A DNA stretch of 41,441 nt. Origin: a virus. Its lineage: Duplodnaviria > Heunggongvirae > Uroviricota > Caudoviricetes. Shown here piece after piece: positions 26,717 to 27,508 of this stretch (position 1 is its first letter; each line of letters starts with the position of its first letter). Location: the IMG/VR virus record IMGVR_UViG_2541047739_000012; one strand, 5' to 3'. The notes under the pieces were generated by a model. The model was not told where the DNA came from and ran no database searches. It was given only the letters and a program-made list of their open reading frames with translations. Both the position numbers and the translations under genes were made by a program.

Positions 26717-27104
26717 TAAAAAAAGCATTTTAAGTAGTAATTCTGGTCTAACAACAGGCGGGATTGGCGCAGTTCTAACTACATTGGTACCACTATTGGC
26801 GCCTGACCCTAATAGTGAATGGAGAGCTTTTTTGTATGCCCTCGCCCCATTAGTGTCAGCAATGCTAACCTACATTATGTTGTATGTTATCAATCGACAT
26901 GGACTTGAGTCTCCAGCCGAAGCCGCCCTAAGAAATCGCCTTGAGCGAGATTTAAAAGGTATTGATGAGCAACTGAAAAGCCCTCATCTAAGCGAGAAAT
27001 TTAAAGCTGAGCTTATTGCTGATCGGGAAGAAACTGTTAGAAAGATTGTTAACATTGGTAAGAATGTAGAAGTTTTACCTATTGAAGTTACTAAAGAAGA
27101 ATAA
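26706..27104 (+). CDS. small two-helix membrane protein (cassette gene 3)
   Basis: ATG at 26706 overlaps the gene 2 stop (ATGAGCGGTGA); ORF track's longer form starts at 26673 (ATGs at 26676/26679). Two TM helices (IGAVLTTLVPLLA; FLYALAPLVSAMLTYIMLYVI) then a charged helical C-terminus. Confidence 0.55.
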   Translation: MSGDKKSILSSNSGLTTGGIGAVLTTLVPLLAPDPNSEWRAFLYALAPLVSAMLTYIMLYVINRHGLESPAEAALRNRLERDLKGIDEQLKSPHLSEKFKAELIADREETVRKIVNIGKNVEVLPIEVTKEE

Positions 27105-27123
27105 AACGGCCCTTAGGCCGTTT
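27104..27123. terminator. bidirectional stem-loop between the cassette and Q
   Basis: Perfect 8-bp palindromic stem AAACGGCC / GGCCGTTT with 4-nt loop; U-rich on both strands; sits between the cassette stop (27102-27104) and the Q stop (27140-27142). Confidence 0.55.
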
Positions 27124-27139
27124 AGAATATTCAAGAGGT

Positions 27140-27508
27140 TCACAATTCCATCTCGAGACGAACATCAAGCATTGAGAGACAGCCATCGATAAAGCCCTCT
27201 GCCATCTGGATCTCTATCCGTATCAATTTCTCATCTTTTTTACGTGCCTTTGCAATCTTCCGTTTCGAGATGCCGTATAGGTAATGAGCCACAATCAGAG
27301 AATGTTCGTACGGTTTTTTCTTTTTTAGTAAAGCAAGGCAGCTCTCAATGATAAGAGCGTCATCGTCTGTACAAGAAATTCGTGTTTTACTTATCTGCGG
27401 CATAAGCCCCTTAAAACCAGCTGCTATAGGTGAATAGTCTACCCCAGAGCTATCACTCGCAGCCCATGCCCCCCACCGCTCAAGAACCATCTGAATATCA
27501 CGCACCAT
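27140..27508 (-). CDS. Q: late-gene antiterminator Q (small QuuD / phage-82-type family)
   Basis: 122-aa ORF MVRDIQMVLERWGAWAA...; recalled resemblance to E. coli prophage QuuD-type Q proteins; canonical position downstream of rusA and upstream of lysis genes. Confidence 0.7.
   Translation of the reverse strand: MVRDIQMVLERWGAWAASDSSGVDYSPIAAGFKGLMPQISKTRISCTDDDALIIESCLALLKKKKPYEHSLIVAHYLYGISKRKIAKARKKDEKLIRIEIQMAEGFIDGCLSMLDVRLEMEL

Follow-up and report, generated by a model that had tools for sequence, protein, structure and literature searches.

When the DNA directly behind a Q antiterminator gene is taken up by other genes, where does the late promoter lie? Layouts in which Q abuts its promoter, pR', are annotated in phage 21 and in VT2-Sakai/933W. 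We examined the question in the IMG/VR virus record IMGVR_UViG_2541047739_000012, a stretch of 41,441 nucleotides (nt), here called the window, that is a lambdoid Escherichia coli prophage with its early-right and late genes on the minus strand. The Q gene of this prophage (27508..27140, minus strand; 122 amino acids (aa), TGA stop at 27142..27140) is followed by a hairpin and then by three genes on the opposite strand. A preliminary description of the sequence had proposed that the late promoter is found not directly after Q but within 24660-25555. Our analysis agrees with this placement. One conserved module lies within that interval, at about 25475..25378 on the minus strand, with a predicted start 1.7 kb past the Q stop, and the comparisons presented here support the conclusion that this module, with its start near 25425, is the late promoter of the prophage.

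The promoter was found through homology and not through sigma-70 scans. The preliminary description had advised comparing 24660-25555 with phages whose Q abuts the promoter, and in that comparison the module aligned to the late promoter of VT2-Sakai. The depositors of the VT2-Sakai record annotated a putative late promoter overlapping the end of Q (TTTACG-16-TATCAT), together with a Q-utilization site and a terminator. In Sakai, the pR' start has been mapped by differential RNA sequencing (dRNA-seq) and the 3' end of the terminator tR' by Term-seq, and the two are 258 nt apart (PMC7547250). The coordinates of that paper belong to another assembly version, and we infer the placement of the start on the VT2-Sakai sequence: the T-run of the second terminator ends at position 3717 of that locus (L036), which puts the start at ~3460, 7 nt past TATCAT. 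The predicted -10 hexamer of pR' in the window, TATTGT (25432..25437, minus strand), aligns to TATCAT, and because the Sakai start falls 7 nt after the -10, the aligned start in the window is the A at ~25425.

Upstream of this hexamer, at 25446..25462 on the minus strand (about -37 to -21), is a near-palindrome, TAACGCGGTCCGCATTT (also given as TAACGCGGTCCGCATT), that is a candidate Q-binding element. The predicted start is spanned by the block TGTTAAGAGTGGT (25420..25432, minus strand), which is strongly conserved across every Q clade compared and is a candidate pause and Q-loading determinant. A sigma-dependent pause by analogy with phage 21 was considered and not assigned, with TAAGAG at -4..+2 in the window and TAAGCTG at +2..+8 in phage 21. 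The position of the promoter-proximal terminator (25378..25397, minus strand; +27..+49) holds a degenerate hairpin followed by a T7 run. The pattern AACGCGGTCCGC-N18-TTAAGAGTGG matched the window only once, at 25460..25421 on the minus strand, and had 0 matches in 100 shuffles. Across 26 non-redundant modules, the GCGGTCCGC core was invariant or nearly so, and the -10 pattern TAnnnT was conserved.

The association between the module and this clade of Q proteins held in both directions. In the DNA behind Q homologues from 27 bacterial species we repeatedly found the motif AACGCGGTCCGC with TGTTAAGAGTGGT some 20 nt after it, and in about 20 genome and phage loci the distance from Q to the module ranged from overlap with the Q 3' end up to 3.9 kb. 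One sample comprised the 80 viral contigs whose Q proteins are closest to that of the window (79-100% identity); all 77 that have enough downstream sequence contain the module. A second sample of 120 contigs was anchored on the module and is the less biased of the two. This Q clade lay upstream on the same strand in all 104 contigs with at least 2.5 kb of upstream sequence, the remaining 16 having less than that. We also observed a natural swap. Phages vB_EcoM-606R7 and vB_EcoS-689R5, which carry an unrelated Q of 229 aa, are 97-99% identical to the window up to 27541, in rusA, and again from 25384, in the T-run, onward; between these positions they have a different promoter region from which the module is absent. 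Because both were replaced together in these phages, Q and the module form one exchangeable unit, even though 1.7 kb separates them here.

The palindrome over the -35 region shifts in discrete steps by Q clade, while the TGnTAAGAGTGGT start block is constant. The window shares GCGG-T-CCGC with Stx2_EH1846, APSE-8 and Yersinia; E. coli 537-20 (L005) has GCGTACGC; Citrobacter, Tatumella and Pantoea have TGCGT-T-ACGCA; and 933W/Sakai, DLP12 and Symbiopectobacterium have TTTACGATCGTAAA, TTTACGTACGTAAA and TGGAATTCCA, respectively. These classes do not simply follow overall divergence, because APSE-8, with a Q 58% identical to that of the window, keeps GCGGTCCGC, whereas Citrobacter, with a Q 61% identical, has another palindrome. 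We consider the near-palindrome the best candidate for a Q-clade-specific Q-binding element. Taken together, the two-way association, the natural swap and the clade-specific palindromes support the prediction that the module is the target of this Q clade. The preliminary description had left room for Q-dependent regulation that is organised differently; we saw no sign of this, and the module is retained with Q.

In some relatives the module occurs in tandem, with three copies in an Enterobacter sp. (L013 4399/4519/4634) and two in Yersinia (L016 4396/4552; L017 4396/4541). In these loci the Q open reading frame (ORF) is longer (141-146 aa) and is overlapped at its 3' end by the first copy; terminators separate the copies. 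A 36-aa "antiterminator" annotated by PGAP in E. coli 537-20 (WP_086259018.1; L005 2569-2679) was considered as a remnant of a longer Q gene, a reading that we rejected. It merely spans the terminator hairpin and T-run and is probably a spurious ORF.

Several observations weigh against our reading of the module. At a spacing of 16-18 nt from TATTGT no -35 hexamer can be recognised upstream; with 3 nt more than its 933W counterpart, the palindrome leaves no TTGACA-like -35 that fits in the window. Both strict and relaxed scans for the sigma-70 consensus missed the late promoter, and the strict scan returned a tRNA promoter-like site, one site in a tRNA gene and one in the cassette, which is fewer matches than in shuffles. 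The hairpin at +27..+49 folds at only -9.2 kcal/mol (z +0.27), whereas the corresponding hairpins of relatives reach -20 to -22. The T7 run is retained, and the three IMG/VR contigs whose Q is 100% identical to that of the window have the same degenerate allele. With regard to the palindrome as a Q-binding site, in the solved Q21 complexes the element consists of a directly repeated sequence in the spacer (10.1101/651190), the "putative Q-utilization" site of VT2-Sakai is annotated downstream of the start, and the co-variation of palindrome and Q could be due in part to linkage. A convincing promoter for the inverted genes was likewise not found, the best sigma-70 match on the plus strand of 25380-25560 scoring just 7/12. 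Finally, every step for this prophage and this Q clade is comparative only.

The assignment of the 122-aa protein as a Q antiterminator, already made in the preliminary description, is upheld by both its family and its position. The protein matches Pfam PF06530 (Phage_antitermQ) over profile positions 2-118 of 118 (E 5.2e-52) and phrog_79 (E 6e-45), and aligns weakly with the solved Q21 protein in the PDB (E 7.6e-5). PF06530 has been named the Q21/Q933W family by Yin et al. (10.1101/651190), and antitermination by the 122-aa Q at its cognate promoter is predicted from membership of this family. The gene order, DUF968, rusA and Q followed by tRNAs, holin, lysozyme and Rz, places Q at the end of the early/nin region and upstream of the lysis genes. 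Directly upstream of Q is rusA (27498..27875, minus strand; Pfam RusA, E 8.6e-16). Position 27541, inside the rusA 3' end, is a mosaic boundary in blastn comparisons with phages that carry the other Q family.

The sequence between Q and the cassette is short and is dominated by one hairpin, AAACGGCC-TAAG-GGCCGTTT (27123..27104, present on both strands), with a perfect 8-bp stem containing 5 G-C pairs and a 4-nt loop. It had been reported as a perfect palindrome at 27104-27123 lying 17 nt past the Q stop; the palindrome is as reported, but we counted a spacing of 16 nt (27139..27124). The convergent stop codons of the last cassette gene (27104) and of Q (27140) flank it exactly. On the minus strand the RNA fold has an energy of -15.1 kcal/mol (z -3.7), matched by 1 of 200 shuffles; with its U-rich tail, UUUUAUUCUUCUUU, this strand shows the G+C-rich stem and U-run of an intrinsic terminator. 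As plus-strand RNA it folds at -14.4 kcal/mol (z -3.6; none of 200 shuffles as good), with the same stem and a poorer tail, UUUAGAAUAUUC, and termination of the cassette transcript here is accordingly less certain. A simple terminator scan returned 7 sites per 3.4 kb, compared with 3.5 expected, so that this single hit is weak evidence by itself. Its position, the fold statistics and the presence of hairpins at the same place in most other cargo types argue that it is beyond chance. The other cargo types in related loci each have their own, different hairpin at this position past the Q stop, and this dependence on cargo type means that the hairpin is part of the cargo rather than of Q. We suggest that it is a two-way intrinsic terminator that came with the cargo and doubles as the end of the early operon.

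The cargo itself, described earlier as about 1.5 kb of opposite-strand sequence past the hairpin, was found to consist of three plus-strand genes over 1549 bp (25556-27104). Its G+C content is 0.37-0.45 (about 0.40), compared with 0.47-0.58 (about 0.50) in the flanks, and its GC skew is reversed; the Q gene is also lowish in G+C (0.41-0.44). Gene A (25556..26437; 293 aa) belongs to the LAPAL family, which is the same as PADLOC PDC-S42 and phrog_3243, and matches PDC-S42 over 5-286 (E 4.1e-27), NCBIfam NF053583 (LAPAL_fam, named "putative phage structural protein" by NCBIfam; E 5.6e-56) and phrog_3243 (E 3.3e-58). PADLOC PDC systems are defence candidates only, and gene A would accordingly be a member of a candidate anti-phage defence family, PDC-S42. 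A sequence-profile search of the PDB with the LAPAL protein returned nothing meaningful, and in the literature searched we found no paper on PDC-S42. Gene B (26453..26716; 87 aa) encodes an N-terminal stretch rich in hydrophobic residues that falls below the transmembrane cut-off used. Gene C (26706..27104; 132 aa from the PGAP ATG start, 143 aa from the TTG at 26673 that opens the ORF) encodes one strongly hydrophobic segment. Family searches gave no match for either B or C. Tatumella and E. coli 537-20 carry homologous cassettes of three genes. A 3.2-kb region of the window is present at 99.8% identity in E. coli HS13-1, 94EC and E10, which carry this prophage.

The cassette has several features of a moron: it is replaced or absent in collinear relatives, carries its own terminator and deviates in base composition. 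The whole variable segment extends from 25473 to 27139, that is, from the Q stop to ~10 nt upstream of the promoter palindrome, and similarity to the E. coli 537-20 locus (L005) picks up again at 25472. We looked for target-site duplications and flanking direct repeats around the cassette and found none. An A/T-rich inverted repeat of 13 nt with 85% complementarity is present at both cassette borders (25466-25478 and 27093-27105) and is probably due to chance.

This gap between Q and the module is filled in many relatives. In the Q-anchored sample, Q and the module were split by 0.4-1.8 kb in 72 of 77 contigs and abutted in the other 5. In the module-anchored sample, 64 of 104 were split (by 0.69-1.77 kb), 39 abutted (<60 nt) and 1 had a gap of 80 nt, and among the species representatives the split was seen in 15 of 27. 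The premise of the preliminary description, that the promoter canonically stands next to Q, holds for phage 21 and VT2-Sakai, but in this Q clade the split is common and not exceptional. The 86 gap sequences fell into 23 cargo groups unrelated at the DNA level, and all split loci keep the module. Genes opposite to the Q strand are present in 19 of the 23 groups, and most groups have a G+C-rich hairpin of their own within ~30 nt of the Q stop. Both junctions are constant in position. The first directly follows the Q stop, with some variation in the final Q codons, and the second precedes the palindrome by ~10 nt and keeps a short A-tract. Besides the LAPAL cassette, the cargoes include a KAP NTPase (PDC-S20, PifA-like), TIR-TM, an NYN nuclease, an SDH-type protease, DUF6731 and unknown families, and in phage cdtI, whose Q is 88% identical to that of the window, another inverted two-gene cargo. 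Only part of the cargo matches known or candidate defence models; on these comparisons the Q-pR' gap receives cargo recurrently and is enriched in defence-like genes. Its position in a quiet stretch between the early and late operons would explain the recurrence.

Not all cargo in these phages lies in the slot. In viral contigs L064-L067 and L069, Q abuts the module at 21 nt, and the late operon of L064 contains two ORFs that, as judged by reading, resemble an ArtAB/pertussis-like AB5 toxin and would be Q-controlled, unlike the cassette of the window. In the Hamiltonella phage APSE-8 (L037 6001-7021), the variable toxin-cassette region begins at a Q of the same clade (58% identity). The GCGGTCCGC module of APSE-8 overlaps the Q 3' end, which places the toxin cargo of this phage past the late promoter.

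Downstream of the module, the minus strand carries a tRNA promoter-like site, TTGCAA-17-TATTAT (25269..25297; score 9/12), that aligns to the "putative tRNA promoter" of VT2-Sakai. A start at the tRNA promoter has been seen by dRNA-seq in Sakai (PMC7547250). Four tRNA genes follow (24950..25259, minus strand), with a CAT anticodon and for Lys, Thr and Gly. The first of these (25184-25259, CAT) was called Met by ARAGORN, the identical gene is annotated as tRNA-Ile by PGAP in other E. coli, and a tRNA-Ile is annotated at the same place in VT2-Sakai/933W. A search of Rfam with permissive thresholds returned the four tRNAs only and no StxS-like or other RNA family. A hairpin follows tRNA-Gly (24943..24898, minus strand), and a weak hairpin with a U-run, CCGC-UUUU-GCGG, lies just before the holin gene (24718..24740, minus strand; -6.6 kcal/mol, z -2.5) and is a candidate terminator for Q-modified polymerase to read through. 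With a constitutive promoter-like site for the tRNAs ahead of the holin gene, terminators between tRNA-Gly and S are needed to stop unmodified polymerase, and these two hairpins are probably the terminators that silence the lysis genes in the lysogen. Between the tRNAs and the holin gene, at 24830-24900 on the minus strand, there is also an inverted repeat of 12 or 13 bp, (A)TGAATGATCGCC ... GGCGATCATTCA(T), with a loop of ~40 nt. The first late protein gene encodes a phage 21-type holin S (24442..24657, minus strand; Pfam PF04971, E 1.4e-35). In related loci, lysis genes were found only past the module, on its own strand. A tblastn search for lysis genes past the module, made with a narrow query set, recovered them in 39 of 93 loci, and reading the ORFs of six loci that it missed revealed other holin or endolysin types in five.

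Together these data suggest that a three-gene moron with a hairpin of its own was very likely inserted, in inverted orientation, between Q and its cognate pR', with the module left intact 1.7 kb downstream. Early rightward transcription through DUF968, rusA and Q would stop at the hairpin at 27123..27104. Q, being diffusible, would act in trans, and homology and co-variation suggest that it locates pR' via the near-palindrome at about -37 to -21. By the mechanism of the solved Q21 complexes, it would load onto polymerase paused just past the start, and the modified polymerase would then pass the terminators and tRNAs into the holin, DUF1327, lysozyme, Rz, HNH and terminase genes. The cassette would sit in the sole stretch between the early and late operons and be expressed in the lysogen from its own signals. 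In this position it would avoid transcription by, or collision with, Q-modified polymerase as well as read-through into the lethal late genes, and its inverted orientation and the terminator would insulate it on both sides.

Other explanations of the layout place the late promoter elsewhere or deny it a function. In VT2-Sakai, APSE-8 and Yersinia loci the promoter overlaps the Q 3' end, and the hairpin at 27123..27104 has a good U-rich tail on the minus strand, which would fit a late promoter inside the Q 3' end, with the hairpin as tR' and the cassette read through in antisense. However, we found no copy of the module (with up to 2 mismatches) and no promoter-like site in or after the Q 3' end. 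The hairpin varies with cargo type, and is thus the cargo's, and a complete module is present 1.7 kb downstream. We regard this explanation as extremely improbable. It is also conceivable that the insertion orphaned Q, so that the arrangement is a dead end in a decaying prophage whose late genes are off proper Q control. The promoter-proximal terminator hairpin is degenerate in the window, the integrase and tape-measure genes of the same prophage in strain E10 are annotated as frameshifted, and DLP12, which has the same layout, is cryptic. Yet the split recurs in 72/77 and 64/104 contigs, in many genera and with 23 cargo types, and the module is always retained. Moreover, SfIV shares the layout and is UV-inducible, forms plaques and lysogenises (PMC3851460), and because it is a working phage the split is compatible with a normal lytic cycle. 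In the window prophage, the main structural, terminase and integrase frames (at least 200 aa) are open. A dead end is therefore unlikely in our view.

A further explanation holds that the late genes are Q-independent, transcribed from the tRNA promoter at 25297..25269 or by read-through, and that the module only yields a short StxS-like regulatory RNA. In favour of this are the score of the tRNA promoter-like site (9/12), the activity of the corresponding promoter in Sakai and the weakness of the first terminator in the window; in addition, in Shiga toxin (Stx) phages the pR'-tR' transcript is processed to an Hfq-binding small RNA, StxS (PMC7547250). Constitutive transcription of holin and lysozyme would be lethal, however, so the terminators between the tRNAs and S must halt unmodified polymerase; and because these later terminators stop it anyway, the weak first terminator need not be lethal. 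The perfect association of module and Q clade and their joint replacement point to a target of Q, and a small RNA by-product fits insertion of a moron between Q and pR' equally well. We consider Q-independent late genes very unlikely.

The arrangement is ordinary in kind, as morons, conversion genes of the nmpC/lc type between Q and the lysis genes, and the moron of SfIV are already known. In the literature that we searched, with incomplete coverage, we met neither a cargo hotspot between Q and pR' nor an explicit placement of the late promoter downstream of such cargo. Nor did this literature, with the same incomplete coverage, report how large the slot is (23 cargo types, many genera) or that palindrome classes pair with Q clades. 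The extent of the hotspot and the Q-clade-specific palindromes are modestly new. We tentatively propose, as a broader claim that may equally well fail and perhaps slightly more readily, that the gap between the Q stop and pR' in 933W/QuuD-type phages is a widespread, precisely bounded and undescribed hotspot for cargo and defence genes across Enterobacterales, and that this branch of Q reads -35 palindromes in at least six specificity classes, unlike the direct repeat of Q21.

For annotation, this means that the late promoter should not be assumed to lie next to Q in this large clade and that the module must be located explicitly. Predictions of Q control, including those for the toxin genes of Stx-like and APSE-like phages, depend on where the module lies: cargo upstream of it would be outside Q control, and cargo downstream (stx, ArtAB-like toxins) under it. 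The slot is easily mined, being bounded by the Q stop and by the A-tract and palindrome, and about 90 loci have already given 23 cargo types. Because several cargoes match known or candidate anti-phage proteins and many are unknown, new defence or exclusion genes could be sought there at little cost. The pairing of palindrome classes with Q clades offers a testable hypothesis for promoter recognition by 933W-type Q proteins, for which we found no experimental definition in the literature of how they find their promoters.

Among the known systems most like the window, 933W/Sakai resembles it in its promoter. The alignment is ungapped from the -10 through the TGnTAAGAGTGGT block to the hairpin position at +27..+49, and tRNA genes with a promoter of their own come next. 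In contrast, the 933W/Sakai Q is only 45% identical to that of the window, its palindrome is TTTACGATCGTAAA, its promoter overlaps the end of Q and, in VT2-Sakai, has a -35 (TTTACG) at 16 nt, and the 258-nt leader is not conserved in the window. There the stx cargo follows pR' on the same strand, under the control of Q, whereas the cargo of the window is upstream, inverted and outside that control. Phage 21 shares the Pfam family PF06530 (structures 6P18-6P1C, 6JNX) and, in its curated record, the order of -35, Q-binding element, -10, start, pause element, terminator (+3..+50), tRNAs and S21 holin. Its Q is only about 31% identical to that of the window, its promoter starts 7 nt after the Q stop rather than 1.7 kb away, and the element of Q21 is made up of two directly repeated 8-bp subsites within the spacer, unlike the near-palindrome centred on the -35 region.

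In its layout, the window is matched by DLP12 of E. coli K-12, in which the PF06530-type quuD is followed by hairpins, the inverted porin gene nmpC and then the module before essD-rrrD-rzpD. The DLP12 module is well preserved (L121, MG1655, 5190-5280; palindrome TTTACGTACGTAAA), and we found no literature on the location of the DLP12 late promoter. DLP12 differs in that its cargo is an IS5-interrupted porin gene and the prophage is cryptic. SfIV has a Q 83% identical to that of the window and a low-G+C, inverted two-gene cargo between Q and the lysis cassette, followed by the GCGGTCCGC module, with other cargo genes plus an insertion sequence element. Its authors called the region orf47-49 a low-GC moron and did not locate the late promoter relative to it (PMC3851460). 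A known hotspot in another phage group is similarly a fixed site between conserved genes that receives many unrelated, often anti-phage, cassettes. There the flanking genes are different, whereas here the slot parts a regulator from its own target promoter.

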